Below, in pieces: positions 4,347 through 40,626 of a stretch of 64,000 nt of DNA (its first letter is position 1; each line of letters begins with the position of its first letter). The notes under the pieces are model-generated. The model saw nothing but the letters and a program-made list of their open reading frames with translations, did no database searches and was not told where the DNA came from. The position numbers and the translations under genes are program-made. The stretch comes from an uncultured Gemmatimonadales bacterium. GTDB taxonomy: Bacteria > Gemmatimonadota > Gemmatimonadetes > Gemmatimonadales > GWC2-71-9. The stretch covers positions 2,660,209 through 2,724,208 of the forward strand of contig CAWCMH010000001.1 of the NCBI GenBank assembly GCA_963796635.1, given 5' to 3'.

Positions 4347-4821
4347 GTCATCCCGAGCGCAGCGAGGGATCGCTTTCCGGTCACGGCCGTCACCCGAAGC
4401 AGCGCGAGGGATCGCTTACCAACCGCGCGATCTGTCCCGCGTAATGATGTAACCCAATGCGTTGAAACATGCCAGCCTGCTCGCCCCGGTCGCCTACGAT
4501 GCGGCATGGCCCGGACCTACTTCGTCTACATCCTCGCTGGCCGCACACGCGTGCTCTATGTTGGCGTGACCAACAACGTCGTGCGCCGCGTTCACGAGCA
4601 CCGTGCGGGTGTCGGATCGCGGTTCACGAGACGATATGGGGTACATCAGTTGGTATATGTCGAATCAACCGCGAAAGTTGTCGCTGCTATTCGCCGCGAG
4701 AAGGAGATCAAGGGCTGGACCCGCTCCAAGAAAATGGCGCTGATCGAGAGCGCCAATCCTGGATGGGAGGATGTGATGATCGGCTTGACGGAGAACGATC
4801 CCTCGCTGCGCTCGGGATGAC
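4347..4821 (+). mobile_element. Candidate small mobile unit: GIY-YIG nuclease gene bracketed by inverted copies of the dispersed 25-27 nt repeat
   Basis: Forward repeat gtcatcccgagcgcagcgagggatcgc at 4347-4373, with a degenerate second forward copy at 4389-4415. Reverse copy gatccctcgctgcgctcgggatgac at 4797-4821 contains the nuclease stop codon. Confidence 0.45.
4506..4820 (+). CDS. GIY-YIG nuclease family protein (UPF0213-like)
   Basis: MARTYFVYILAGRTRVLYVGVTNNVVRRVHEHR..GSRFTRRYGV..LVYVE carries the GIY/YIG motifs and conserved Arg/Glu. The last 7 codons (DPSLRSG) are encoded by the repeat. The track ORF from 4323 reads through repeat copies and is an artefact. Confidence 0.85.
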   Translation: MARTYFVYILAGRTRVLYVGVTNNVVRRVHEHRAGVGSRFTRRYGVHQLVYVESTAKVVAAIRREKEIKGWTRSKKMALIESANPGWEDVMIGLTENDPSLRSG

Positions 4822-4862
4822 AGCGGCGGCCGGAGAGCGACCCCGAGCGCAGAAATCCGCGT

Positions 4863-7208
4863 CTATTCGGACCACGTCGTCGCGAGTACCTTCTTGCGAA
4901 GCGCGACGTAGCGCGGATCGCTGTCCATGCTGCGGAGCCACGGCATGTCCCATCCCAGAAAAAGCCGGATTCCGTACGTCTTCATCTGGTACGCCTCGTC
5001 GAGCATCGCCATGGCCTTGTCGCGGTCGCCAACGGCCGCGTACGAAATCGCCAGAAAATCCGGGTCGACCCACTGCCGCCGAGCGCGCGCCTCCATGGCG
5101 TGAATTTCGCGCAGCGCGTCATCGCGCCGACCCATGCGCGCATAGGTCATCACCAGCCCGTAGGACGGCAGATCGGACATCTTCTTGAAGTCCTCGAATG
5201 CCGCCAGCGATTCATCGAGCCGCCCGAGTTCGCGCAATGCATTGCCATCGGTGACATCGATCAGGACAACAGTGGGATCGATCTTCTTCGCGGCGATCTT
5301 CTGGTGCAGCGCCGCCTCGTACTGGCCGTCCCACAGCAATGCCTCGGCGCGCAAATGCGGTCCCAGCGGTGACAGGGGATCGACCTGAATCAGCGAATCC
5401 GCCAGGCCGATTGCCCGCTTGGTGTTTCCCGAAAGAAATGAAAACGTCGCCACCATGAACAGCGCGTCCGGCGAGCCTGGGTTGATGGCCAGACCGCGAT
5501 TCATCTCGGCGATGCCTCGCGGGAAATCCCAGTTGGCCGCAGCCAGCTCAAATCCGTAGATCACGCGTGCTTCAGGTAGCAGTGAGTCGGCGGCCAGCGC
5601 CAGGCGCGCTTGCTGGAGGGCAAGCGTGTGATACTCGTGCGACGGGGCGTAGGTGTCGGCGAGAATGTCGTACGAAAAAGCGAGTCCAGCGCGGGCCTGG
5701 GCATAGCCAGGATCGATGGCGAGCGCCTGCTGAAAGTAGTTCACGGCGCGCGCGAGTCCCGCCGAGTCGACCTTGTTTTTTTCGAATTCGCCGTGCATGA
5801 ACAAGTCGTGCGCCTCGGGGCTTTCGGTGCGCCCGGTCCGCGCGGCCGGCGACAGCGCGACGCGCATCTCGCTCGCGACGGCAGCGGCCACTTCGTCCTG
5901 CAGCGCGAAGTTGTCCTTCATCTCGCGGTCGAACTTCTTCGACCAGAGCAGCTTGCCCGATGCGTCGTTCAGCTGCATCTGCAGCCGGATGGCATTGCCC
6001 TGCGACTGCAGCGTGCCGCTCACCAGCATGCCGACGTGCAACTGGGAGGCGATGTCGTTCGGTGCAAGCCGAGTATGCTTGAACCGTGACGTGCTCAAGT
6101 CGCCGACCACCTCAAGTCCCGGGGTCTGCCGCAAGTTGCTGGCGAGTTCGCTGGTCATGCCGTCGGCCAGGTACTCCTTGGCTGAATCGCCGCCCGCGTT
6201 CTCGATCGGCAGCACGGCGAGCGATCGCGCCAGCGTGTGCGATGCTCCGGCTGACGGCCGTTTCACGATCATCACAGTCGCAATCGCGGCGATAGCAACC
6301 GCCGCTGCGTACCACGGCCAGCGCACACGACGGCGATTCGGCGGGGAGAAGGCAGCCGCTCCGCTCACTGGAACGCTATCCAGTGCGCGAGCAACATCCT
6401 CGGCGTGTTGCGGACGACGGTCGGGATCCTTCTCCAGGCACTGCGTCACCACGGCCGCGAGGGTTGGCGGCGTGTCGGCCCGCACGTCGCCGATCGGCAC
6501 CGGCGTCTCGGTCAACTGGGCGGCCATGACCCGCTGCAAATTGTCGCGAACGAATGGCGGTGTTCCCGCGAGTAGTTCGTAGGCCATGCACCCGAGGGAA
6601 TAGATGTCCGCGCGCTGATCGATGTGCGGATCACCCGCCGCTTGCTCAGGAGCCATGTAGGCGGCGGTCCCGATCGACATGCCGGTCTGGGTGAGATTCG
6701 CCGCCTCGCCGTGGGTGCGCGCGGCGCTGATCGCCTTGGCGATGCCGAAATCGGTCACGACAGCCGCTCCGGCCGACAGCAGCACGTTGTCGGGCTTGAT
6801 GTCGCGATGCACGACCCCGTGCTGGTGCGCGTAACTCAATGCTCGCGAGACATCACGAAGGACGTTGACCACGTCCGCAACTGGTAACGGGCCCTGCGCG
6901 AGGTGATGCCGCAACGATTCGCCGTCGACGAACGGCATGGTGAAATAGGGCAGACCATCGATGTCGCCGGCTGCCAGCACTGGGACAATGTTGGCCTGAT
7001 TCAGCGACGCCGCGAGCTGGATCTCGCGCTCGAAGCGCTCGAGCGACAACCCCTGGGCCAGCTCCGGCGACACGACCTTGATCACCACCTTCCGGTGCAG
7101 CCGCGTTTCCTCGGCGACGTAGACCCGCGACATGCCGCCGCCGCCGAGTTCACGGTCGATGACGTACTGGCCCGAGAGCGACACGCGGAGTTGCTCGAGG
7201 TGATCCAT
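4863..7208 (-). CDS. Ser/Thr protein kinase with C-terminal TPR-like repeats
   Basis: GGGGMSRVYVAEE..K (ATP site), HRDIKPDN, DFG and APE motifs. One predicted TM segment (WYAAAVAIAAIATVMIV), then a TPR-like helical region. ATG at 7208 (MDHLEQL) is preferred over the ATG at 7274. Confidence 0.85.
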   Translation of the reverse strand: MDHLEQLRVSLSGQYVIDRELGGGGMSRVYVAEETRLHRKVVIKVVSPELAQGLSLERFEREIQLAASLNQANIVPVLAAGDIDGLPYFTMPFVDGESLRHHLAQGPLPVADVVNVLRDVSRALSYAHQHGVVHRDIKPDNVLLSAGAAVVTDFGIAKAISAARTHGEAANLTQTGMSIGTAAYMAPEQAAGDPHIDQRADIYSLGCMAYELLAGTPPFVRDNLQRVMAAQLTETPVPIGDVRADTPPTLAAVVTQCLEKDPDRRPQHAEDVARALDSVPVSGAAAFSPPNRRRVRWPWYAAAVAIAAIATVMIVKRPSAGASHTLARSLAVLPIENAGGDSAKEYLADGMTSELASNLRQTPGLEVVGDLSTSRFKHTRLAPNDIASQLHVGMLVSGTLQSQGNAIRLQMQLNDASGKLLWSKKFDREMKDNFALQDEVAAAVASEMRVALSPAARTGRTESPEAHDLFMHGEFEKNKVDSAGLARAVNYFQQALAIDPGYAQARAGLAFSYDILADTYAPSHEYHTLALQQARLALAADSLLPEARVIYGFELAAANWDFPRGIAEMNRGLAINPGSPDALFMVATFSFLSGNTKRAIGLADSLIQVDPLSPLGPHLRAEALLWDGQYEAALHQKIAAKKIDPTVVLIDVTDGNALRELGRLDESLAAFEDFKKMSDLPSYGLVMTYARMGRRDDALREIHAMEARARRQWVDPDFLAISYAAVGDRDKAMAMLDEAYQMKTYGIRLFLGWDMPWLRSMDSDPRYVALRKKVLATTWSE

Positions 7209-7398
7209 GGATGCCGCTAATGGTACCTGTGGAGTGGCAGCGGGGCGAATCCGCCGTGCGAGAAGGTTGACCATACTGAATGCACGGCCTGTACCCCAGA
7301 CCCCGACTTCTGCCGCTTCCCCCGCGGTGACCTGTTTCGCCCCAGGAATACGCTTTTAGGGGTGACTCGTATTGCCGCCACCCGTTTCGGGAGATCCC

Positions 7399-29805: not shown

Positions 29806-30327
29806 TCAGTCCCACAGCAGCAGCAACGAACTGCTTGCGAGTGGATCGCCGTGTTGATCGAACAGGGTAATTCGGACGCCGGTGGGTGCCTTCACGTCGG
29901 GTACGGCGTACCGAGCGAATAACGCTCCTGGCGACAATACCGCTACGACGTACCCACCAGCCCAACGGGCCAGATTCTCAATGGACAAGGTGCGCTCGCT
30001 GACGGTGACGTAGCTCCCGGGACGGTTATCGCCACCGCCCCCTGCTTCCTTCGGGATAGGCGAAACGAATACCTCTTCACGAACTCTACCAACGAATCGG
30101 CTTGGTAATCCGAACGCAGCTACCTGGACAGTATCCGAATCATCGTTTTGCGACCATTCCGAATCGGGTGGCGGGTTGACCTCGTGTTGCCCTAGGAGCA
30201 GTCGAGGAAAAAACTGCACCATAACGTGTTCCGGATAACCGGCCCGCGATCCAATCGGTGCGCGTGTGCGTTCACAGGACGCTCCGCTAGACACGCAGGC
30301 GATGAGCAAGAGGATGCGATATTTCAT
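29806..30327 (-). CDS. Lipoprotein, putative immunity protein for the orphan LAS/M15-like toxin
   Basis: MKYRILLLIACVSSG lipobox. Its ATG overlaps the toxin stop (ATGA at 30324-30327). Visibly more A/T-rich than the flanks. Confidence 0.6.
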   Translation of the reverse strand: MKYRILLLIACVSSGASCERTRAPIGSRAGYPEHVMVQFFPRLLLGQHEVNPPPDSEWSQNDDSDTVQVAAFGLPSRFVGRVREEVFVSPIPKEAGGGGDNRPGSYVTVSERTLSIENLARWAGGYVVAVLSPGALFARYAVPDVKAPTGVRITLFDQHGDPLASSSLLLLWD

Positions 30328-31475
30328 GGCCACGCCAAGTGAATGTGATTCATGTGTTCGGCACGCAGCGGGTTGTTGACGATCGGCAGCGGACCTCGAC
30401 CGTTTTCGTATTTTCCAGCAGGACCCAGGTCTCCCCCGACCGCACGAAGTCCGCCCAGAGAATTGGCGACGGCTTGGACTCGTCCCGCGATTGCACCCAT
30501 GCCGGGGTTCGTGTGCCGGCCGTTGCCAATGTCCCTGCCGTTAATCCAACCGATGTCGGCTGCTAGCCCTTGCGCGTGGGCGCTCGACAGATGATGACCG
30601 TTTGTGGTCGCGTTTAGACCCAGATCGACATCGGCGGCGTCGGCAACTGCTTGCAAATGGGCCAACGTACTCCGTCGAAGCCCCGCGAGCGAAGCGCCTA
30701 ACACGCGGCCTTCAGGGCTGATCGTTACCTGACAGGCCCTCGGCTTGCCACTTGGATCTTCACAGGCCGCCAACCCCACCGGATCCCGGAAGCTATTGGG
30801 ATCATTCCCGTTGTACTCGTACAGATTGGTGCCGCCCGCCAGACCCGCGTGATCCTCCTGCAGCCAGCTCCCCGTGGCCGGATCATACTGCCGGGTTCGG
30901 AAACTCGAGATGGCACTCGTCGTATCCGTCGCCAGCCGGCGCGGGTCGAACGTCTGCGCCCGCTGCGTGATCCCGCTGGTCGCCCACGTGCCGCTCGCAT
31001 ACGTCGACGGGTTCTCGTACACATTGTTGTACGTCCCCGCCGAGTCCGCGATCGACACCAGCTGGCCCATCCCATCGGACACCAGCGACAATCGGGCCTG
31101 CGCCAGCTTCGTGTCGCCCACCCGCTTGATCGCCACCAGCGGCTCGTCGAGCCCGGGGGCGTACACGTAAAACCACCCCAGCTGCGGCGCCCGGATGGCG
31201 TCGTGGCCCAGGAGCGAGAACGGTGCGCCGCCGCAGCCCTGATACATCCGGCCGTCGGGATCGTAGCTGCAGCTGTTGGGCGCCGTGTTCAGGTTGTGCG
31301 TATAGCCCACCATCCGGCCGGCGCCGTCGTACTCGAACCCATTCACGTTCGTGAACGTGGCGTTGTAGTCGTCGCGCCGGGCACCATCGCGATCGTACTC
31401 GTAATACTGCGACGCCGTGCCGGCACCGACCAGCGTCCCGAGATCCGGTGATTCGCGCCACGGCGTACCTGTCAC
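30324..31475 (-). CDS. Orphan RHS C-terminal fragment (core tip + LAS/peptidase-M15-like toxin domain)
   Basis: Residues from TLVGAGT to [10 protein letters not shown] are near-identical to the main RHS protein. After DPVG a unique domain carries SAHAQGLAAD (SxHxxGxAxD) and EHMNHIHLAW (HxH), as in LAS-fold peptidoglycan peptidases. Confidence 0.8.
   Translation of the reverse strand: MTGTPWRESPDLGTLVGAGTASQYYEYDRDGARRDDYNATFTNVNGFEYDGAGRMVGYTHNLNTAPNSCSYDPDGRMYQGCGGAPFSLLGHDAIRAPQLGWFYVYAPGLDEPLVAIKRVGDTKLAQARLSLVSDGMGQLVSIADSAGTYNNVYENPSTYASGTWATSGITQRAQTFDPRRLATDTTSAISSFRTRQYDPATGSWLQEDHAGLAGGTNLYEYNGNDPNSFRDPVGLAACEDPSGKPRACQVTISPEGRVLGASLAGLRRSTLAHLQAVADAADVDLGLNATTNGHHLSSAHAQGLAADIGWINGRDIGNGRHTNPGMGAIAGRVQAVANSLGGLRAVGGDLGPAGKYENGRGPLPIVNNPLRAEHMNHIHLAWP
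30774..31437. repeat. rhs core-tip repeat (copy in orphan 1), 664 bp near-identical to 36304-36967
   Basis: Direct reading of the aligned sequence. Identity starts at ccccaccggatcccggaagc (the DPVG codons) and ends at caccgaccagcgtc. Confidence 0.9.
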
Positions 31476-31759
31476 CCCGTCTCGATCACCCGCGCGATGG
31501 CCGCCACTACCTGCACGACGTCACCCGCCTGGTACGACCACGTCGCTGTCCGATGCGGCATCCGCACCTCGACATGCTCCGTGTACACGGCGACCACGGT
31601 GTCATCGAGTTCCAGTTCGATCACCGTCTCCGCGGGCCGCACCGGCGCCGCCAGTCGACGCACGAGCCGGCACGTGACGCCAATCCCCTCGGCCCGGCAC
31701 CACGCCATCACATCGCGCGCGATGGCGCGCTGCGACAACGTGGCGGCGTCGTCCAGCAT
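31472..31759 (-). CDS. 95-aa module protein (unknown function), copy A
   Basis: High GC3. Differs from the copy at 33663-33950 at only a few residues. Its stop overlaps the orphan rhs GTG start (GTGA). Confidence 0.65.
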   Translation of the reverse strand: MLDDAATLSQRAIARDVMAWCRAEGIGVTCRLVRRLAAPVRPAETVIELELDDTVVAVYTEHVEVRMPHRTATWSYQAGDVVQVVAAIARVIETG

Positions 31760-31779
31760 GCATCAAGTGCCGCGCACGC

Positions 31780-32355
31780 TTACACGTTGTCGCGCAGGGC
31801 ATACGTCGGCGGCGCATCCGGGCCGTGATACTGCACCTCGCCGTGCCGTCGCAGCGCTTCCAATTCCCCGTCCGCCTCGGCGCGCACGCGCGCGAGCCAG
31901 GGATCAACCCAGTACGGGCCCGTGTACCGCGGCACCGTGACAGGATCACTGCGACGCGGCGGTGAGACCGGTGGCTCTGGTCCCCACGGGTACCGCAGCG
32001 GCGCGTGCGGGCGCCGCCAACTCGATGGCACCGAGCGCCGCAAGGACGGCCGGCCCCAGCCGGGGAGACCGGGACCGGACGCCTGATGGTGCACGCGCGG
32101 TGCGGGCGCTGGCAGCGTCGCTGCCGCCAGCCCCGTGTTGATCTTCCCGTTGCGACCCACGCCGAGCGCGCGAGCCAGGCGGTCGACTTCGTGGAGCAAA
32201 CCTCGAAAGCCGGTGAAATCGTTGTGGGCGATGTATCCCGTCGCACGGCGGCGCCACGCCCGTTCCAGGGGCTGCACGGCGGCGAGCCGCGGCAACGCTT
32301 CCAGCAGCATGCGCAACCGGTCGTCGAGTTTCAGGATGTCGTAGTTGAAGGGCAT
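31780..32355 (-). CDS. PGWGRP-motif module protein, paralog 2 (full length, 191 aa)
   Basis: High GC3. Variable N-terminal half (..HEVDRLARALGVGRNGKINTGLAA..) and conserved Pro/Trp/Arg-rich C-terminal half. 20 nt upstream of the 95-aa gene. Confidence 0.6.
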   Translation of the reverse strand: MPFNYDILKLDDRLRMLLEALPRLAAVQPLERAWRRRATGYIAHNDFTGFRGLLHEVDRLARALGVGRNGKINTGLAAATLPAPAPRVHHQASGPGLPGWGRPSLRRSVPSSWRRPHAPLRYPWGPEPPVSPPRRSDPVTVPRYTGPYWVDPWLARVRAEADGELEALRRHGEVQYHGPDAPPTYALRDNV

Positions 32356-32832: not shown

Positions 32833-33666
32833 CTAAGGAATTGGAGTCCAGCGCGGAGCACCGTCGAACAACGTTTCCGGGATAAATGTCATCTTTATGC
32901 TGGTGACGACGTTCGTGCTGGTAGCGTCGGTCACCACGTAGAGATCCTTACCGCTGGCCATGCCACCGCGAATTACATGCGCGATAGTGCCAGGATGTTT
33001 CGCATCCATGTATTTCTCGCCAACCCGAATAGCAGCCTTGGACATATCGGCCGATATCCCACGCTCCGCGTTGTCGACGGCTTGATGTCGACTTATACTG
33101 ACTGCGGCGTCGGTCGCTTCAACGGCATCGCCCACGGCGGATGTCAAGAGGCCCACGGCCCCAGAAACCAAAACGAGGATAGGGTCGTTGCCAGCTGAAA
33201 CTGGCCTGATCTCTCCGGGATCAGGATGGATTACATGCTTTGCACAGTCTGGACAATCGTCAGGCTGCAGACCCACCGGATCCCGGAAGCTATTGGGATC
33301 ATTCCCGTTGTACTCGTACAGATTGGTGCCGCCCGCCAGACCCGCGTGATCCTCCTGCAGCCAGCTCCCCGTGGCCGGATCATACTGCCGGGTTCGGAAA
33401 CTCGAGATGGCACTCGTCGTATCCGTCGCCAGCCGGCGCGGGTCGAACGTCTGCGCCCGCTGCGTGATCCCGCTGGTCGCCCACGTGCCGCTCGCATACG
33501 TCGACGGGTTCTCGTACACATTGTTGTACGTCCCCGCCGAGTCCGCGATCGACACCAGCTGGCCCATCCCATCGGACACCAGCGACAATCGGGCCTGCGC
33601 CAGCTTCGTGTCGCCCACCCGCTTGATCGCCACCAGCGGTTCGTCGAGCCCGGGGGCGCCGATCAC
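32833..33666 (-). CDS. Orphan RHS C-terminal fragment (short core tip + DUF4258-like toxin domain)
   Basis: [16 protein letters not shown]...[10 protein letters not shown] is identical to the main RHS tip. The unique tail contains SRHQAVDNAERGISADMSKAAI...LYVVTDATSTNVVTS, resembling the DUF4258 pattern (H.A..R...RgIs...v). Confidence 0.75.
   Translation of the reverse strand: MIGAPGLDEPLVAIKRVGDTKLAQARLSLVSDGMGQLVSIADSAGTYNNVYENPSTYASGTWATSGITQRAQTFDPRRLATDTTSAISSFRTRQYDPATGSWLQEDHAGLAGGTNLYEYNGNDPNSFRDPVGLQPDDCPDCAKHVIHPDPGEIRPVSAGNDPILVLVSGAVGLLTSAVGDAVEATDAAVSISRHQAVDNAERGISADMSKAAIRVGEKYMDAKHPGTIAHVIRGGMASGKDLYVVTDATSTNVVTSIKMTFIPETLFDGAPRWTPIP
33272..33658. repeat. rhs core-tip repeat (copy in orphan 2), 387 bp near-identical to 36305-36691
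   Basis: Direct reading. Same DPVG-side boundary as the other copies; the upstream boundary is at cccgggggcg. Confidence 0.9.
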
Positions 33667-33950
33667 CCCGTCTCGATCACCCGCGCGATGGCCGCCACTA
33701 CCTGCACGACGTCACCCGCCTGGTACGACCACGTCGCTGTCCGATGCGGCATCCGCACGTCGACATGCTCCGTGTACACGGCGACCACCGTGTCATCAAG
33801 CGCGAGCTCGATCACCGTTTCCGCGGGCCGCACCGGCGCCGCCAGTCGACGCACGAGCCGGCACGTGACGCCAATCCCCTCGGCCCGGCACCACGCCATC
33901 ACATCGCGCGCGATGGCGCGCTGCGACAGCGTGGCGGCTTCGTCCAGCAT
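33663..33950 (-). CDS. 95-aa module protein (unknown function), copy B
   Basis: Near-identical to 31472-31759. Same GTGA overlap with the downstream orphan rhs fragment. Confidence 0.65.
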   Translation of the reverse strand: MLDEAATLSQRAIARDVMAWCRAEGIGVTCRLVRRLAAPVRPAETVIELALDDTVVAVYTEHVDVRMPHRTATWSYQAGDVVQVVAAIARVIETG

Positions 33951-33982
33951 GCATCACGTCCCGTGCACTGACCAGGTGCGTC

Positions 33983-34333
33983 TTACGCGGTGTCGCGCAG
34001 GGCATACGTCGGCGGCTCATCCGGGTGACACTGCACCTCGCCATGCCGTCGCAGCGCTTCCAATTCCCCGTCCGCCTCGGCGCGTACGCGCGCGAGCCAG
34101 GGATCAACGAAACCCGGCGGACCGCTCCCGCGGGACACACAGGGATCGCTGCGACGCGCTGGCGAAACCGGCGGTTCATTGCCCCAGGGATACTGGAGCG
34201 GTGGCGCCTCGCGCGGACCGCTGTCCATCACCCGCTTGTTTCGCGCGCCGGACCGGCCCCAGCCGGGAAGGCCGGGACCAGTGGCGAGCCGATCAACCGC
34301 CTCGCGAACCCCTGAATTTATTGGGCTCATCAT
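33983..34333 (-). CDS. PGWGRP-motif module protein, paralog 3 (C-terminal part only, 116 aa)
   Basis: DRLATGPGLPGWGRS...YPWGNEPPVSPARRSDP...FVDPWLARVRAEADGELEALRRHGEVQCHPDEPPTYALRDTA. Its ATG overlaps the stop of the 171-aa gene (ATGATGA). Confidence 0.5.
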   Translation of the reverse strand: MMSPINSGVREAVDRLATGPGLPGWGRSGARNKRVMDSGPREAPPLQYPWGNEPPVSPARRSDPCVSRGSGPPGFVDPWLARVRAEADGELEALRRHGEVQCHPDEPPTYALRDTA

Positions 34334-34845
34334 AAGAGATGATATTCATGTCGCCGGATCGCGCGCTGCCAAGCCGACTTACAATGCCGCAAGTCCGCGA
34401 ACGAAGCGGACGGCTGTATATCGCCAGCCCAGTGTTGCAACCCCGATCCCGATTCCACGTAGGCGACGTTCTTGAGGGCCTCGTAGCATAGTATCCCGAC
34501 AAGTACGCGTTGTCCGCCGATCGTAGCACGAGCTCGCACCGGCCTGTCCAAGCACTCCACCAACTCCCTGACAGCTCGATCTCCGAAGGGCGCGATCGTC
34601 CGAAAGAGGCGCCGGTTACCGTCGAAGCGCCATGTACGGGCCGGTTGCGGCACGAAGGTGCCTGTGAGGGTATCCAGTTGTCGGACCAGCCAAGTCAACG
34701 AGTCAAGTCGAGCGCGTTCGCCACCTCCACTCACGACAACGCGATGCTCAACTTGCAGGCCTACGGTCACTGGCACGGTCTGAGCCGCCGCGAACAGCGC
34801 GGCCCAGAGGCACAACGGCAATTGTGGCGTGCTCAAGATTAGCAT
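34330..34845 (-). CDS. Secreted 171-aa protein (signal peptide), possible second immunity protein
   Basis: MLILSTPQLPLCLWAALFAAAQT signal peptide. GAGGAG upstream of the ATG. A/T-richer than the genome. Sits between the N- and C-terminal parts of a PGWGRP-family gene. Confidence 0.55.
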   Translation of the reverse strand: MLILSTPQLPLCLWAALFAAAQTVPVTVGLQVEHRVVVSGGGERARLDSLTWLVRQLDTLTGTFVPQPARTWRFDGNRRLFRTIAPFGDRAVRELVECLDRPVRARATIGGQRVLVGILCYEALKNVAYVESGSGLQHWAGDIQPSASFADLRHCKSAWQRAIRRHEYHLL

Positions 34846-34857
34846 GTTCTCAACTCC

Positions 34858-35061
34858 TCAGTGACATGACATCACTGCATAGTGGACGTGACTCCGATGT
34901 TCTAACATCAGGTCGCGCAAACGCTGGTCCGCCGCCAGCCCTGTGTTGACCTTTCCATTGCGGCCCATGTCCAACGCGCGGGCCACCGACTCGACTTCTT
35001 CGGACGTGCCGTTCGTCGTGGTGCTTATCCCCCGTGTCGAAATCCGTTGCCATCGCGCCAC
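34858..35061 (-). other. N-terminal fragment of a PGWGRP-family gene (67-aa ORF)
   Basis: EEVESVARALDMGRNGKVNTGLAA aligns with paralog 2 residues around GRNGKINTGLAA, then diverges and stops. The 5' part is overlapped by the lipoprotein gene end. Confidence 0.35.
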
Positions 35062-35828
35062 TTCGCGCTTCCACTCGAGCTCTCATGAACCGGCGTACGC
35101 GCCGGTCGCATTCGGTCTGCACCCGCCAATTGCGCGGCCCTATGCTCTAGACCGTCGATTGCCTGTAGCATGTCGCCGTTACAGCGTGCAGCCGGTGTGT
35201 GTCCGGCGCGCAACGCTTGCGCCAGTGCATTTGCACTGGCGCGATATACTGTTGACAAGCTGTCGTAAAACCTCGCGCCGGCAGCGGCGTCTTGCGCAAA
35301 AGCTCCATCAGGACCTTGGAATAGCACACGCTCCCAAGTCAGGTGATATGCGTGTACGCAAGGAGCGGCGGCGGCGTCTCCGCGACATTCGCCCCGACCG
35401 ATCGCACCGGCCAAGTGCTCAATGATGTCAATTCGACCATCACGGTTGACGTCACGGAGCTCCGGGAGCGCGCATGTACCCAGACCGGACTCGTATCGCT
35501 TGCTAACAGAGTCATGCAGGTCCAGAAGCAGCTCGGCGCTCAGCATCTCCTCAAAGTCGACCGTAACCCAGAGATCGGGCAGCGAGTCGTTGTTGGCAAA
35601 CAAAAGGCGGGCCGACGGCACGACAATCGCGCTGCCAGTAGACCACAACAACAATCGTCTGGCCGGGCTTGAGCGAAACCATTCCAAACGTCGTTCGGGA
35701 GTCTGAGCCACAACCACAGTATCCTGGCCCAGAGCCGTGACGACTGTGCCAAGCGGCGTCTGATCCGATCGTGGCGACGGCCGTCCGCACCCGAGAATGA
35801 CGAGAGTTGCGGCCAGAATCGTTCTCAT
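35025..35828 (-). CDS. Lipoprotein, putative immunity protein for the M23-like RHS toxin
   Basis: MRTILAATLVILGCG lipobox from the ATG at 35828. TAGGAGAAAGCACATG gives a strong SD 10 nt after the RHS stop. A/T-richer than the genome. Confidence 0.65.
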   Translation of the reverse strand: MRTILAATLVILGCGRPSPRSDQTPLGTVVTALGQDTVVVAQTPERRLEWFRSSPARRLLLWSTGSAIVVPSARLLFANNDSLPDLWVTVDFEEMLSAELLLDLHDSVSKRYESGLGTCALPELRDVNRDGRIDIIEHLAGAIGRGECRGDAAAAPCVHAYHLTWERVLFQGPDGAFAQDAAAGARFYDSLSTVYRASANALAQALRAGHTPAARCNGDMLQAIDGLEHRAAQLAGADRMRPARTPVHESSSGSAKWRDGNGFRHGG

Positions 35829-35838
35829 GTGCTTTCTC

Positions 35839-38800
35839 CTATGGCTGATCGACGTAAACGACAGGACCATACCCACTCAAGGAGCCGGCCACCACTACTG
35901 TTCCCGATATGGCTGCGTGAACCGGGGTACCAATTTGACTGCGGATGTCGATGCCTTGGTGTGTCCCGTACACTCCAGTAACGGGGTTCACGCGCGGCCC
36001 AAACGGGGACGTCACGTACTCGTTGCCCGAAATGGGATTCGTTCCGTGAATCCGTTGTAGCTCAATTTGTGGATCGACCGGCGTGCTTTGCCCATTCGCG
36101 AGCGCCGAACCGGCAACATTTATCACGCGTGTCTCGAAATGCAGGTGCGGTCCCGTCGAGCGCTCGCCACCTTCAGCGCCGCCACTCAATCCAATGACGT
36201 CGCCTTGATGAACCCGTTCGCCCTCATGCACGCAGATCTTTGAGAGATGACCGTATCGAGTCTGGACCCGCACGCTGTCATCATCAGGACTGTCTGGACA
36301 CGTCCCCACCGGATCCCGGAAGCTATTGGGATCATTCCCGTTGTACTCGTACAGATTGGTGCCGCCCGCCAGACCCGCGTGATCCTCCTGCAGCCAGCTC
36401 CCCGTGGCCGGATCATACTGCCGCGTCCGGAAGCTGGAGATGGCACTCGTCGTATCCGTCGCCAGCCGGCGCGGGTCGAACGTCTGCGCCCGCTGCGTGA
36501 TCCCGCTGGTCGCCCACGTGCCGCTCGCATACGTCGACGGGTTCTCGTACACATTGTTGTACGTCCCCGCCGAGTCCGCGATCGACACCAGCTGGCCCAT
36601 CCCATCGGACACCAGCGACAATCGGGCCTGCGCCAGCTTCGTGTCGCCCACCCGCTTGATCGCCACCAGCGGTTCGTCGAGCCCGGGGGCGTACACGTAA
36701 AACCACCCCAGCTGCGGCGCCCGGATGGCGTCGTGGCCCAGGAGCGAGAACGGTGCGCCGCCGCAGCCCTGATACATCCGGCCGTCGGGATCGTAGCCGC
36801 AGCTGTTCGGCGCCGTGTTCAAGTTGTGCGTATAGCCCACCATCCGGCCGGCGCCGTCGTACTCGAACCCGTTGACGTTCGTGAACGTGGCGTTGTAGTC
36901 GTCGCGCCGGGCGCCATCGCGATCGTACTCGTAATACAGCGACGACGTGCCCGCACCGACCAGCGTCGTGCGCGTCGAGTCGACGCGGTTGCTCGCCGCC
37001 GGATAGAACAGCGTCGTCAGCGTCGTGGCGAGTCCGTGACTGTTGTCGCCCGTGCGGTCGCCCGAGGCGTTGTAGCTGAAGGTGTCGGTCGTGGTGACGC
37101 CCGCCCGATTCATCAGCGCCTGCACGGCGATGCCGCCGGTGCGATAGTAGCGCGTCGTCGCCTCCGCGGGCATCCAGTCCCCGCAAGGATCGCCGGGGTC
37201 GCCGCCACCGTAGCTGCCTGCGCCAGTGCAATCCATCCATTGGTGCAGGACGCGGCCCATCACATCGACGCTGTCCTGCTTCAGGGCAAAGATGAACCGG
37301 TTGGGCGTGACACCCGAGGTGTTCGTCGACGACAGCTTGCGCAAGGTACCGAGACGGTCGTAGTGCGAGGTCACCGTCATGCCGTCGTACGGGTAGATGA
37401 TTTCGCGCCGACGCCCCAGTGTGTCCCAGAGAAATCGATACACTTCGCTGCGGGACCCTGCGCTCGTCGGCCACTGAGCCGCCAGGGTGTCCAGGTCACC
37501 CGTGCTGTAGTAGCTGTACGCAACGGACTCGCCGGCGCCCCACAACAGGGAATCCAGCTGGCCTTTGGCATTGTACGCCATACGCACCGAGTCGGTCACC
37601 AGCGGAGCCTCGGCGGGGAGATAGGTCGAATCGGGATAATCCGCCTCGGTGTGAATGGTGCCGTCGCTGAAGTAGGTACGCACGATCCGCCCGTGACGGT
37701 TCCGGTGTGTCAACAGATTGCCCACGATGTCGTACGTGCTCGTCACCGTGTCGGGCGGTGCGGTCAACAGTTCACCGCCGGTCGAGACGGTGTCGAACGG
37801 CATGGTCCACCGAGTCAATCGTCCAAGCGAATCGTAACGGAAGGTCAGCGTGTCGCCGAGGCGGGTCTTGCGCCACACCAACTGCCCCGTCGAGTCGTAG
37901 GTAAGCCGTTCGGCCTGCCCCGCTTCATCGGTGTCGGCGATCATCAAGCCACGCTGGTCGTAGCCGAAGCGCTGGGTGACACTGCGATAGTCCAGGACCC
38001 TGGTCAGGCGGCCCAACGTGAATTGGCGGTGAATCTGGATCGGGTGCGTGGTCAGATCATTCAGTATGGTTGGCGAGCACACGAATTCGTTGCCGAGACA
38101 GGCCGCACTGGTCGAATCGATGGTCCCATTGGCGATATCCAGCGTGTCGCGATCCATCGGGTCGTAGAAGTACGTCATCCGGAAATGCAGCGGATTGGTG
38201 ACACCCGTCACGCGACCGGCGCCGTCGCGATAGAAGAGCGTCGCACCACCAGCCGGGTTGTTGACGCGGGCGGAATTGCCGAGCGCATCGTAGCTGACGG
38301 TGGTGACCTGGTTGGTCGTGCTGTCGGCGGAAAGGCTCTGGATCCAGGTCGGCACCGACAGTTCGGTGACGCTGGTGAGCTGGCCCTCAAGCGTTCCACT
38401 GGTGTTGTAGGCATACCTGGTCGCATGCCCGCGCGGATCGAGGATCGAGTCGGTGAGCCCCATCGTGTTGTAGTGAAACTGCGTCACGGTCCCATCGGGC
38501 GCCGTGACCTGGCTCGGCGAGTCGTAGTCGTTGGCGTCGCCATAGACCCACGTGGTCACCTGCTTGGGGAACGCGCTGGTTCCCCACGCACTGTCGGTAA
38601 GCTGCGTCAGATTGCCGCGGGCATCGTATTGCATGAAGGCCTTGCGGCTGTTCGGATAATCGATCTCGCTCACCAACCCCGGTGCGTTGGCCGAGCCGCG
38701 CACATAGCTGGTGACGGTCCCGTAGGCATTCTTCTCCACAATCGGTGCGCCCCACCGGTCGACATGGAACACCGACACATGACCGCTGTTCGCCGGCGGA

Positions 38801-40626
38801 CCGTCGATCGTCGTCACCGCGTTCGCCGTGTCCGACGCACTGTAGCTGCCGCCGCCCGGCAGGCCGAATCCCGCCGCCTGCCATGCGGTGTAATTCGTGA
38901 CCGATGTCGCCGCCGCGCCATTCGACGTGTAGTACACGATCGACTGATCCACCAGCGCATCGGTGCCGTACGCCACCGCCACGGAGTCCTGCCCGCTGTA
39001 GGTCGACATCGCCAGGCGCCGGTCACCGTTGTAGGCAAAATGCATCTTCGTGCCGTCGGGCCAGACCCAGCTGGTCAACTCCGGCGTGCCGCTTACCGTG
39101 ACGGTCGTGTCGACGATGTTGCGCCCGTCGAGCCGCACTCCACTCAGCCGCCCGCTGGCATACTGCACCTTGAATGCCTTGCCGCTGCCACTGGGCGGCA
39201 ATAGCACGCTGTCCAGCTGGGTCGCGCTCGACCACGCAAAGGTCGTGATCTGTCCGGCTCGGTTCCTGGTCTGCACGTGCCGGCCCGTATTGTCGAACAG
39301 CACTTGCACCCCGTGCCGCGTCGTCAGGGTGTACTGGCTGCTCGCGTACGCGATGCTGTCCTGCCCATCGTCGGCTGCCGACATCCACTTGTTGCTCCCA
39401 TCGGCCCGGTAGAAACGTGTCGATCCGTCCCCGTCGACCCACAGAATGCCGGTCCCCGTGCCGGCGGGCTGGCTCAGCACCAGCCGCTCGACGCCAAGCC
39501 ATTCGAACCCGGCGCCGTAGGGACTCTGGTTGCGGTTGACGACCGTGCTGAGCCCGCTGATGCTGGCCGACACCGAATCACCGGACGACGCCGCATACAC
39601 CGTCAGCGTATATGGGTAGATCCCCGTCGCGGTGTTCACCGCGTTCCAGCTCAGTGCAATCTGCCGCGTGGCGTTCTTCCAGCCACCGTACTGCACAGTG
39701 GTTCGCACCGTGTCGTTCACGGTGAGCACCGCCGTGAGGTGATCCGGCACGGGGCCGAGCGGCATGCGGATGTTGGCCGTGATGACCGGCGCCGGCGCCG
39801 CGGTGTTCGACGCATACACGAGCGTCATGCTGCGATCGCGGTCCAGCGTGGTGTAACCGGGTGTCTCGAGGAAATACATCGCGTCGCCGCAGGACCAGGT
39901 GAGCGGACCGCGGCTCGTGGTGAGACAATGGCCACGATTGAAAACGGAATCGTTCTGCTGCGGTTGCGACAACACGGGCGTCGACGGCCCGGTGAATGTC
40001 ATCGCGTACCAGCCGGAGTCGCTGACCACGCCGTCGGTGGCGAAGAGCGAGATCGTGCCGGTGCCGCTCGACGCCGCGGGATAGTTGATGTCGATGTCGA
40101 CCTGCTCGTTGGGATCGAGCGAGACTTCTTCGATGTCGCTGCTGCACGACGGCACCACGCCGGAAACGTGGCAGCTGAGCGTGAACGTCCGCGTGGATGT
40201 CGTCGTGTTCTTGACGAAAAACGTCACGTCGCCGGCGGACCCGGCCCCGGCCGCGAGCGCGCTGTCATCGGGCGTGACGACCACCCATCCGATGATGAGT
40301 GGCCGCGCGGAGCCCTGGTTCGTGACGGGATTCTGCGCGCGCCCCGGCAACGGCAGGAGGGTGACGGCCGCGAAACCGGCGCACAGCGCGCCGGCTCCGA
40401 GCCGCAGGCGGGAACCCCCCGCAGCCACCGGACCGTCGGGGCGCATCGTGGATGCATCCCCGTTCCGATTCGGTCGAGCCGGCCACGGGTGGAGGGTCCG
40501 GTCGTCCAGGGGAGACAACCGGGGGAGCAGCGTCCGGTCCGGGACGGACCGGGGTGGGTGGTGGAGCGCCGCCGCCCAGCGGGCGGCGGTATCACGGGCG
40601 CGAAGCGCCAGTCCTCGGAAGTTCAT
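35839..40626 (-). CDS. RHS/YD-repeat polymorphic toxin with Sec-type signal peptide and M23-peptidase-like (permuted) C-terminal domain
   Basis: Many YD repeats ([40 protein letters not shown]). Core tip ...[16 protein letters not shown]. Signal-like [26 protein letters not shown] after the internal ATG at 40446, an alternative start. The C-terminal 150 aa carry M23 motifs. Confidence 0.9.
36304..36967. repeat. rhs core-tip segment of the full-length gene shared with both orphans
   Basis: Near-identical to 30774-31437 over its full length and to 33272-33658 over its first 387 bp, all in direct orientation. Confidence 0.9.

Follow-up and report, generated by a model that had tools for sequence, protein, structure and literature searches.

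The Rhs gene in the window (here, the whole stretch of 64,000 nucleotides that was analysed) ends in a tip in which two halves of an M23 (LytM/lysostaphin-type) peptidase follow each other in the wrong order. This raises the question of whether the tip is a natural circular permutant of the M23 domain, made to attack peptidoglycan, or a by-product of faulty assembly, recombination or some other use of M23 sequence. The features of the locus are listed in Table 1. The Pfam RHS_repeat profile (PF05593) matched the Rhs protein in 5 stretches with 68.4 bits, so that a YD/RHS repeat core is present, and the protein was colinear with the Rhs protein P0135 across 1549 aa, tail included, at 31% identity. 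An identical Rhs protein was also found in a public collection, on a 3.2-Mb contig. The gene upstream is yidC, and no PAAR, VgrG or other trafficking domain was detected in the Rhs protein with Pfam at E<=1. Met61 is followed by a stretch that, judged by reading the sequence, resembles a Sec signal peptide.

Table 1. Positions in the window of the Rhs gene, its predicted M23 tip and the neighbouring features
Feature	Position	Strand	Details
Rhs/YD-repeat polymorphic toxin gene	35839..40626	minus	ORF and translation; 1595 aa counted from the first ATG
Rhs core 3' end	36304..36967	minus	recurs in both downstream orphan tips
Cleavage-type motif closing the Rhs core	36304-36333	minus	last 10 residues of the core, at the end of DHAG-(19)-DPVG
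Predicted circularly permuted M23 (LytM/lysostaphin-type) peptidase domain	35842..36303	minus	154-aa toxin tip
First encoded half, the canonical C-terminal M23 half	36112..36267	minus	YGHL (H18), HLH (H53, H55)
Connector, old C-terminus to old N-terminal lead-in (YVTSPFGPR)	35965..36111	minus	~10-aa family-specific insert after HLHFETR
Second encoded half, the canonical N-terminal M23 half	35845..35964	minus	HQGID (H115, D119), GYG strand
Stop codon TAG, 35841-35839, overlapped by AGGAG ribosome-binding site	35840-35836	minus	read from the sequence
Putative cognate immunity gene, 267-aa lipoprotein	35025..35828	minus	lipobox ILG followed by C; DVNxDGxxD motif; conserved cysteines
171-aa ORF after the immunity gene	34330..34845	minus	hydrophobic N-terminus; ORF list; gene call in L092
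Orphan (displaced) Rhs tip 1	32833..33666	minus	core end DPVG followed by LQPDD, then an unrelated 135-aa tip
Orphan Rhs tip 2	30324..31475	minus	core end DPVG followed by LAACEDP, then a 149-aa tip

We found that the Peptidase_M23 profile (PF01551) matched the tail with 82.7 bits (cut-off 28.7; E 2.1e-23) and that this match was split into two stretches, with profile positions 45-90 falling on tail residues 13-64 and positions 2-41 on residues 114-153. Each half was also recognized by itself, the first with 50.7 bits (E 2.2e-13, PF01551 positions 45-90) and the second with 37 bits (E 4e-9, positions 2-41). An earlier note on this DNA had predicted just such a pair of partial profile matches in swapped order, and the half-wise matches bear out its description of the tail as a C-terminal M23 half with the Y.HL and HxH motifs, followed by an N-terminal half with HxxxD and the GYG strand. 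The elements run YxHL, HxH, HxxxD and GYG along the tail, whereas canonical M23 has HxxxD, GYG, YxHL and HxH. When the halves were artificially re-joined in canonical order, a single colinear PF01551 match resulted (positions 2-90, 92 bits); joining the protein end to the start of the tail does, as the note had suggested, restore a normal M23 segment. The profile aligned colinearly only once the halves had been re-ordered.

The same exchange was apparent against a solved structure, the TagE chain 5j1l_A, whose residues 32-104 correspond to tail residues 82-152 and whose residues 110-155 correspond to tail residues 14-62. As judged by coverage of PF01551 and of TagE 5j1l, the two M23 halves are each present exactly once, with no part duplicated or lost. 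The permutation cuts the hairpin that links the GYGxxVxIxH and xxTxYxHL strands; since the chain begins at the YxHL strand and finishes with the GYG strand, its ends fall at a canonical beta-hairpin. The connector occupies about 35-50 residues of the permuted chain. By its sequence, the tip is homologous to the M23 family, but a topological variant of it in chain order. The tail also gave weak Pfam matches to RnfC_N and biotin-lipoyl hybrid motifs.

A frameshift or a missing second M23 domain was considered as a source of the swapped order and was ruled out. A six-frame scan of the entire window with half-domain HMMs returned no additional M23 half, and the same stop is present in an independent Logan assembly of run ERR11594399 (L092, 2279 bp), which is 100% identical to positions 34055-36333, stop included, and reproduces the tail, the stop codon and the next gene. 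The end of the ORF, which the earlier note had taken to be genuine, is therefore backed by a second assembly, and about 30 homologs terminate at the same place. An erroneous stop with a second complete M23 domain beyond it is at odds both with the identity of L092 and with the lack of any further M23 piece in the window. The next ATG lies at 35828, so that 10 nt separate the Rhs stop from the downstream start, which is preceded by its Shine-Dalgarno sequence as had been described.

We also rejected the idea that the permuted order is an artefact confined to a single sequence. A word-indexed search gave canonical M23 proteins only, and an exhaustive HMMER search then exposed a permuted family: about 30 proteins share the swapped order, and most of them are C-terminal Rhs/YD tips right behind DPxGL. 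Half-domain HMMs placed the C-half before the N-half in 30 proteins besides that of the window, with 311 proteins in canonical order and 32 in tandem. Matches colinear with the whole tail include P0121 (61% identity, E 1.4e-52), and the same search also found Rhs proteins (P0135, P0162) and Rhs/YD fragments (P0149, P0155). The roughly 30 proteins of swapped order, at 40-61% identity, have their break points and their end exactly as in the window tip, and the chain of the 30 permuted proteins stops 0-25 residues past the GYG strand (GYGxVxYINH). The median distance from HxHxE to xP is 18 aa for the 30 permuted proteins versus 8 aa for 307 canonical ones; the insert of ~10 aa after HxH is, on this comparison, a derived feature common to the permuted family. 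Some relatives stand alone: one adjoins phage terminase and portal genes (L008) and another lies within a run of small genes (L090). One relative, P0132, has a PG_binding_1 domain.

A metagenome scan with a strict DNA pattern added two more loci of permuted order, and a scan of genomes gave one Gemmatimonadota MAG and one tandem-M23 false positive; these counts are undercounts because the pattern allows only set codons for His and Leu. The Gemmatimonadota MAG is the sole taxonomically named genome that carries the permuted tip. The best 80 viral loci of an IMG/VR scan all had canonical order or the C-half only, and none of the PHROG families was colinear with the tail. In a neighbour-joining tree (117 core columns, 100 bootstraps), the permuted proteins were not resolved as one clade, so that a single origin of the permutation is suggested rather than proven. 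The order itself is, to judge by the same break point in diverged homologs, inherited.

This family bears on whether the tail could be a non-functional recombination scar, in which the Rhs core was fused into the middle of an M23 gene and part of another M23 gene came to lie after it, leaving an inactive remnant. The locus is indeed recombinogenic. In blastn comparisons, positions 30774-31437 matched the core end at 36304-36967 with 97.9% identity and positions 33272-33658 matched 36305-36691 with 99% identity, and the identity of the core end with the orphan tips breaks off exactly between DPVG and T. The threefold occurrence of the core 3' end, the two orphan tips and the atypical T after DPVG would fit such a scar. 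However, identical break points, an identical end and invariant catalytic residues are common to about 30 proteins (40-61% identity), the pair of toxin and lipoprotein genes is conserved, the halves add up to exactly one domain that has neither gaps nor overlaps, and AlphaFold2 (AF2) returns a confident single domain. Conservation largely refutes the scar, to which we assign hardly any probability.

By its arrangement of a variable tip, an adjacent putative immunity gene and two orphan tips, the locus is of the classical Rhs type. Orphan tip 2 was tried as an M15/LAS peptidase and rejected, as no Pfam or PDB sequence match was obtained even at E<=10. The 171-aa ORF had no Pfam match and no homolog in related loci, and its membership in the toxin cassette is uncertain. 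The conserved family, the two displaced orphan tips and the T after DPVG are observations that go beyond the earlier note.

AF2 folded the tip into one compact domain (pLDDT 89.6, pTM 0.84), with a pLDDT of at least 93 for both terminal strands (residues 13-18 for the first and 146-152 for the last) and of 86-97 for the connector. Foldseek, which follows sequence order, fitted only one half of the tip model at a time to canonical M23 (65 columns with an rmsd of 1.3 A in one case; TMq 0.33-0.43) and gave nothing at E<=0.001 against PDB and BFVD; because the aligner follows sequence order, this half-only superposition is uninformative on the fold. The new termini lie centrally in the sheet, a position that could favour swapping, and the two halves might then pair between two chains, either in a domain-swapped dimer or by complementation with another M23 fragment. 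The model speaks against this, as the single chain is compact and both terminal strands are placed with high confidence, and the conserved connector, at about 35-50 aa, is long enough for a single chain to complete the domain. Pairing between chains is, in our judgement, highly improbable, and the five M23 residues of the tip would be expected to converge on one zinc site.

All five of these zinc/catalytic positions are kept in the tip (H18, H53, H55, H115 and D119). H115, G117 and D119 of HQGID were invariant in permuted-family alignments of 19 and 20 sequences, H53 and H55 were invariant in alignment A1 and the YxHL histidine was invariant in alignment A3; across the permuted family, the HxH and YxHL histidines are invariant or at least 90% conserved. 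P0135 is the exception, as G replaces its first HxH histidine. The best NCBIfam matches of the tail were the active endopeptidases MepM, ShyA and Pgp3, and weaker similarities included the amidase activators ActS, EnvC and NlpD. The latter similarities, and the missing catalytic histidine of P0135, would be compatible with a permuted M23 fold that does not hydrolyse its target and instead acts in the manner of EnvC or NlpD, mis-activating the amidases of the target cell or binding peptidoglycan. Degenerate LytM factors are typically without these catalytic and zinc residues, whereas the window tip and nearly all of its relatives retain all five, and the active endopeptidases rank above the activators among the NCBIfam matches. 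We consider a non-hydrolytic role very improbable.

The downstream gene had been described as encoding a lipoprotein, and this holds: its product begins with MRTILAATLVILGC, which carries the lipobox, and its homologs adjoin the permuted tip in eight other loci. The lipoprotein had no significant match in Pfam or NCBIfam, and its family is very small, with only 7 matches among 5.8 billion clusters; some of these 7 bear faint FG-GAP/VCBS Pfam marks. Homologs were located directly 3' of permuted tips in L001, L002, L003, L004, L007, L009, L093 and L094, so that, the window included, tip and lipoprotein genes are adjacent in nine loci, with gaps that range from an overlap to ~10 nt wherever the start call can be relied on. 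Lipoboxes in the relatives read IAG, VVA or LAA followed by C, and in the L007 and L009 homologs a cysteine closes a hydrophobic N-terminal segment. The AF2 model of the lipoprotein was poor (pLDDT 63.7), and Foldseek searches with it gave weak beta-propeller-blade-like matches only. We expect the lipoprotein to be the immunity partner of the permuted tip, given their repeated adjacency.

The peptidase could also serve its producer, as a housekeeping enzyme or export aid that opens the producer's own peptidoglycan for passage of the Rhs protein, and as a lysin in phage relatives. The stand-alone relatives beside phage terminase and portal genes (L008) and among small genes (L090), as well as the PG_binding_1 domain of P0132, agree with such uses. 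In the Rhs context, however, the domain takes the variable tip position after DPxGL, where it is exchangeable with the unrelated tips of the locus, and a dedicated lipoprotein gene comes after it in every case. A variable tip position, exchangeable tips and a dedicated lipoprotein gene are the signature of a toxin-immunity pair, and a role in export or housekeeping appears very unlikely to us.

Together, these results support that the Rhs tip is a circularly permuted M23 domain, the interpretation with which the earlier note began, through the swapped halves, their colinearity on re-ordering and the conserved family. We think it likely that this conserved permutant is a peptidoglycan endopeptidase toxin with periplasmic lipoprotein immunity. 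The scheme that we infer for its enzymatic activity, toxicity, immunity, active-site geometry, export route and origin would run as follows. The Rhs protein, with its signal-peptide-like N-terminus, would first be exported, and Rhs autoproteolysis at the DPVG motif would release the tip. The released tip would adopt an M23-like fold with zinc bound by H115, D119 and H55, and would cleave peptide cross-links of the peptidoglycan in the periplasm of a competitor, while the lipoprotein encoded 10 nt downstream would protect the producer from within its own periplasm. A tandem duplication of M23, followed by loss of the outer halves, is the likely origin of the permuted order.

The release step calls for some caution. 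The boundary motif reads DHAG-(19)-DPVG and then T, compared with the conserved form DPxG-(~18)-DPxGL, and the aspartates are retained. DPVG is followed by T in the Rhs protein, but by L in both orphan tips and in the Rhs-linked relatives with a visible junction. Because of this T, and of DHAG at the first DPxG of the protease motif, autoproteolytic release of the tip is not assured.

It is also conceivable, though doubtful, that the permutation is adaptive rather than neutral, in that ends at the central hairpin and a new connector alter the shape of the substrate groove or the course of folding. If so, the tip could be kept unfolded within the Rhs shell until its release allows it to fold, and its cleavage specificity and immunity interface could differ from those of canonical M23 enzymes. 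An adaptive permutation would explain why the permuted tip has a dedicated lipoprotein family while the canonical-order M23 that L007 also has as an Rhs tip uses a different one. On this reading, phages may also have acquired the permuted lineage for use as a lysin (L008).

M23 peptidases are much studied as cell-division enzymes, as bacteriocins and as candidate enzybiotics such as lysostaphin. Neither the literature that could be searched nor Pfam, NCBIfam or PHROGs yielded a description of a permuted M23, and such a form goes unmentioned in M23 family reviews and in the main catalogue of polymorphic toxins. As the order recurs in about 30 other proteins and goes together with a putative lipoprotein immunity gene of its own, the tip would represent an undescribed natural variant of the M23 fold. 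The existence of a natural, conserved permutant indicates that this fold tolerates termini moved into the central hairpin, which should help the engineering of fusions and of split or switchable lysins. The Rhs repertoire would gain a toxin tip and, for immunity, a lipoprotein family that lacks annotation. The permuted proteins also expose a blind spot in annotation: profile searches label them as plain 'M23 peptidase' or 'MepM/NlpD', and structure searches that depend on sequence order overlook them.

The tip has the HxxxD, YxHL and HxH residues and the PF01551 family in common with canonical M23 peptidases, and differs from them in the order of its halves, in chain ends that lie in the central hairpin and in the insert and connector that join the old termini. 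M23 bacteriocins such as lysostaphin and zoocin A are known cell-wall weapons (M23 review PMC9662197), and M23-domain effectors are mentioned in T6SS and T4SS papers. According to titles cited in the same review (PMC9662197), immunity to lysostaphin and zoocin works through FemABX-like cell-wall modification, whereas the putative partner of the tip belongs to an unannotated lipoprotein family. Circular permutation has long been described for NlpC/P60 lineages, among them YaeF/poxvirus G6R and the LRAT-like families (Anantharaman and Aravind 2003, as relayed in PMC6403190), but none has been described for M23, and the permuted NlpC/P60 proteins have a papain-like fold and Cys/His chemistry, unlike the M23 of the tip. 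A paper on hybrid-barrel domains includes M23 in its structural superposition of them and states that three topologies of the motif, found in different families, are related by circular permutation; those permutations separate distant families (such as NusG and RNA polymerase inserts) and concern neither M23 variants nor toxins.

A further comparison is with tandem M23-M23 proteins (for example P0125, P0126, P0133, P0137, P0142, P0146, P0181 and the ORF of L006), which are common and in which each domain is complete and in canonical order. None of them is an Rhs tip or has the lipoprotein gene after it, and several carry long membrane-anchored N-terminal regions with HExxH, which we take to be BlaR1/M56-like. 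The C-half of their first domain, the linker and the N-half of their second domain align colinearly with the permuted tail along its entire length (36-45% identity). Such tandem proteins are the intermediate expected on a route of duplication followed by truncation, and since they still exist, the permuted tip may offer a natural worked example of permutation by duplication.

The Rhs protein carries RHS repeats that score 68.4 bits over five stretches in Pfam, which detected no PAAR or other trafficking domain, and the gene upstream of it is yidC. The first 60 codons of the longest ORF (40447-40626, minus strand) encode an Arg/Pro-rich leader, and a signal-peptide-like stretch, recognised by eye in the translation, follows Met61 and ends before QNP; Met61 may be the true start of the protein. 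The 1595-residue version is present in a public protein collection, and a shorter version is absent there. At the other end, the 154 residues after the Rhs boundary motif (the tail; 35842-36303, minus strand) were identical in translation to those quoted in an earlier note based on sequence reading alone, and the next ATG (35828) lies 10 nt from the Rhs stop, as had been stated there, with AGGAG overlapping the stop. In the main gene (36304-36420, minus strand) and in both orphan tips downstream, DHAG stands in place of the first DPxG of the Rhs protease-type motif.

Coordinates of the features of the Rhs locus
Feature	Position	Strand	Description
Rhs ORF	35839..40626	minus	1595 aa; RHS repeats and Peptidase_M23 (Pfam)
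Stop codon of Rhs ORF	35841-35839	minus	TAG, overlapped by AGGAG
Partner lipoprotein ORF	35025..35828	minus	267 aa; begins MRTILAATLVILGC, a lipoprotein signal
Core 3'-end repeat	36304-36967 vs 30774-31437	minus	97.9% identity
Core 3'-end repeat	36305-36691 vs 33272-33658	minus	99% identity
Orphan tip 1	32833..33666	minus	core end ...DPVG, L, then unrelated tip
Orphan tip 2	30324..31475	minus	core end ...DPVG, L, then unrelated tip

The tail matched the Pfam Peptidase_M23 profile in two stretches, with 82.7 bits against a cut-off of 28.7. Taken alone, its first half (tail residues 13-64) aligned to profile positions 45-90 (50.7 bits, E 2.2e-13) and its second half (114-153) to positions 2-41 (37 bits, E 4e-9), whereas rejoining the halves in canonical order gave a single colinear match over positions 2-90 with 92 bits. 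The two partial matches in swapped order are what the earlier note had expected of hmmscan. Likewise, in the solved TagE chain 5j1l_A, tail residues 82-152 align to 32-104 and residues 14-62 to 110-155. Every part of the M23 domain occurs once in the tail, and the break point is the turn linking the GYGxxVxIxH and xxTxYxHL strands. NCBIfam models such as MepM, ShyA and Pgp3 were matched half-wise, and NCBIfam holds no dedicated model for the tail. The swapped order is thus confirmed, and the proposed reading as a permuted M23 domain is supported. The tail is an M23 homolog with all catalytic features retained, but since it lacks the canonical order of elements, we class it as a variant of M23 topology and not as a regular member.

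An apparent permutation could also come from a false stop or a frameshift that hides a second, complete M23 domain. A six-frame scan of the window with half-domain HMMs built from the family found no further M23 piece, so no second domain lies hidden behind a frameshift. Moreover, an independent assembly of run ERR11594399 (L092, 2279 bp) is 100% identical to window positions 34055-36333, a span with the lipoprotein gene and the tail down to its stop codon; the contig breaks off at the repeats of the locus, as a short-read assembly would be expected to do. Together, the scan and the assembly exclude a hidden second domain, and the stop at 35839 is not a sequencing error, a possibility that the earlier note had raised. 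A word-indexed search returned canonical LysM-M23 proteins alone, covering 30-60% of the query; run with a 163-residue tail, it missed the window's own Rhs protein (cluster P0386) as well as all permuted relatives, and its lack of close matches was misleading. An exhaustive HMMER search over 1.84 billion representatives found proteins aligning to the whole tail in a single colinear stretch. The permuted arrangement is therefore inherited, and all three lines speak for a real feature and against an artefact.

Sorting 387 retrieved proteins by half-domain HMMs gave 311 canonical, 32 tandem (N-C-N-C order of the halves) and 30 permuted besides the window's own. The permuted proteins end 0-25 residues, typically 0-5, beyond the GYG strand (n=30). 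The Rhs C-terminal fragment P0121 is 61% identical to the tail (E 1.4e-52) and ends ...YGPIVYINHP, while P0135 (1481 aa) and P0162 (1713 aa) are complete Rhs proteins with a permuted tail. The family also includes Rhs/YD fragments (P0149, P0155, P0131, P0128, P0123, P0170 and P0161), a relative bearing a PG_binding_1 domain (P0132) and a number of short proteins that stand alone; nine more relatives came from a profile search and two further loci from a DNA-pattern scan of metagenomes. The sole member in a taxonomically named genome belongs to a Gemmatimonadota MAG. Two stand-alone permuted M23 genes, one adjoining phage terminase and P22-type portal genes (P0141, L008 40-597) and one within a run of small genes (P0144, L090 595-1074), lie in contexts that suggest a role as phage lysins. 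The best 80 IMG/VR matches, all canonical or half-only, included no permuted copy, and no PHROG family colinear with the tail was found.

Across 19- and 20-member alignments, the histidines of HxH and YxHL, as well as H, G and D of HxGxD, were invariant or at least 90% conserved; the tail keeps every catalytic feature of M23. The exception is P0135 (L002 224-4669), where GPGLHFE stands for the family's GPHLHFE at about residues 1378-1384 and glycine thus replaces the first HxH histidine; this copy may be inactive, or the change may be a sequencing error. Common to the permuted family is an insertion of about 10 residues after HxHxE and before the xP motif, a stretch with a median length of 18 residues in permuted versus 8 in canonical proteins (n=307). 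AlphaFold2, given the family alignment, predicted one compact domain (mean pLDDT 89.6, pTM 0.84). Both terminal strands (13-18 and 146-152) and the connector are modelled with high confidence, and weakness is confined to the 41-50 loop and the N-terminus ahead of the domain. Foldseek, an aligner bound to chain order, gave no match to this model at E<=0.001 in PDB and BFVD; the best PDB match was the M23 protein 3slu (TMq 0.33), and BFVD matches superposed one half alone, e.g. 65 columns at 1.3 Å rmsd. Half-only superposition is expected of a permutant because Foldseek follows chain order, and is not proof of a reconstituted active site.

The locus is a classical Rhs tip-displacement array. Of the core 3' end, each orphan tip retains 387-664 nt that are 98-99% identical to the main gene, and this identity ends exactly at DPVG. 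The next residue is T in the main gene and L in the orphans and in Rhs-linked relatives with a visible junction. A second repeated module precedes each orphan (31472-32076 and 33663-34279, 84% identity), and G+C falls from 63-69% in the core to about 58-60% in the tail and the genes that follow. The orphan 2 tip (30324-30773, minus strand) contains SSAHAQGLAADIG and a C-terminal EHMNHIHLAWP, which we take to resemble the SxHxxGxAxD and HxH motifs of LAS/M15-type D-Ala-D-Ala peptidases; it had no Pfam or PDB sequence match even at E<=10. If LAS/M15-like, as these motifs give the impression, it could be a second cell-wall-directed tip of the locus.

The gene directly downstream of the tail encodes a lipoprotein, as previously noted, with a signal at its start. 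It had no significant Pfam or NCBIfam match, its AlphaFold2 model was poor (pLDDT 63.7), and Foldseek found nothing significant for that model. Homologs lie directly 3' of permuted tips in eight retrieved loci (L001, with 42% identity and E 2e-59, L002, L003, L004, L007, L009, L093 and L094); their genes overlap the toxin gene or start no more than about 10 nt from it, and full-length homologs have lipoprotein-type signals. Its members have DVNxDGxxD and CRGD...C motifs in common, and the family is very small, with seven matches in 5.8 billion clusters, some bearing faint FG-GAP/VCBS marks. Immunity genes are typically marked by lying next to a variable Rhs tip in one locus after another, and from this kept adjacency we infer that the lipoprotein is probably the immunity protein; a lipoprotein partner would fit a toxin acting in the periplasm. 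One metagenomic orphan-tip array (L007) encodes a canonical-order M23 Rhs tip followed by a 183-residue lipoprotein-like partner (4514-5678) and, after it, a permuted tip followed by a 268-residue family lipoprotein (5866-7222). Thus Rhs tips come in both M23 topologies, and each topology has a partner of its own. After the putative immunity gene, inside the M23 cassette, lies a 171-residue ORF with a hydrophobic N-terminus (34330-34845, minus strand), which has no Pfam match and no homolog in any related locus.

The permutation would have arisen by duplication of an M23 domain followed by truncation. The permuted tail aligns colinearly across the domain junction of tandem M23-M23 proteins at 36-45% identity, and with 32 such proteins retrieved, the required intermediate is common. 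Several tandem M23-M23(-M23) proteins (P0125, P0126, P0133, P0181 and L006 2340-4769) have long membrane-spanning N-terminal regions with HExxH, presumably BlaR1/M56-type sensors. This sizeable group among the matches is a plausible pool of duplication intermediates. By neighbour-joining over 117 core columns, the permuted proteins were not resolved as one clade (largest pure split 13/28; bootstraps 4 to 27), and the nearest neighbour was also permuted in 24 of 28. Together with an insert in common and one identical break point, these neighbours lead us to favour a single origin of the permuted family.

M23 enzymes are well known as cell-wall weapons, and the tip is quite probably a zinc peptidoglycan endopeptidase toxin that is neutralised by the periplasmic lipoprotein. 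In full-text searches of the literature, no relevant account linked permutation to lysostaphin, LytM or M23. Zhang et al. 2012 (PMC3482391), in their catalogue of polymorphic toxins, mention neither M23/LytM nor permutation, and a 2022 M23 review (PMC9662197) does not mention permutation. The tail represents a clean natural M23 permutant with its own putative immunity family and no earlier description, useful for protein engineering and toxin annotation, and leaves the understanding of such systems unchanged. Precedent for such a permutation comes from NlpC/P60, where the permuted YaeF and LRAT families are known (PMC6403190). A further precedent concerns barrel-sandwich hybrid domains, a superposed set that includes M23: from one protein family to another, their topologies differ by circular permutation (PMC11515920).
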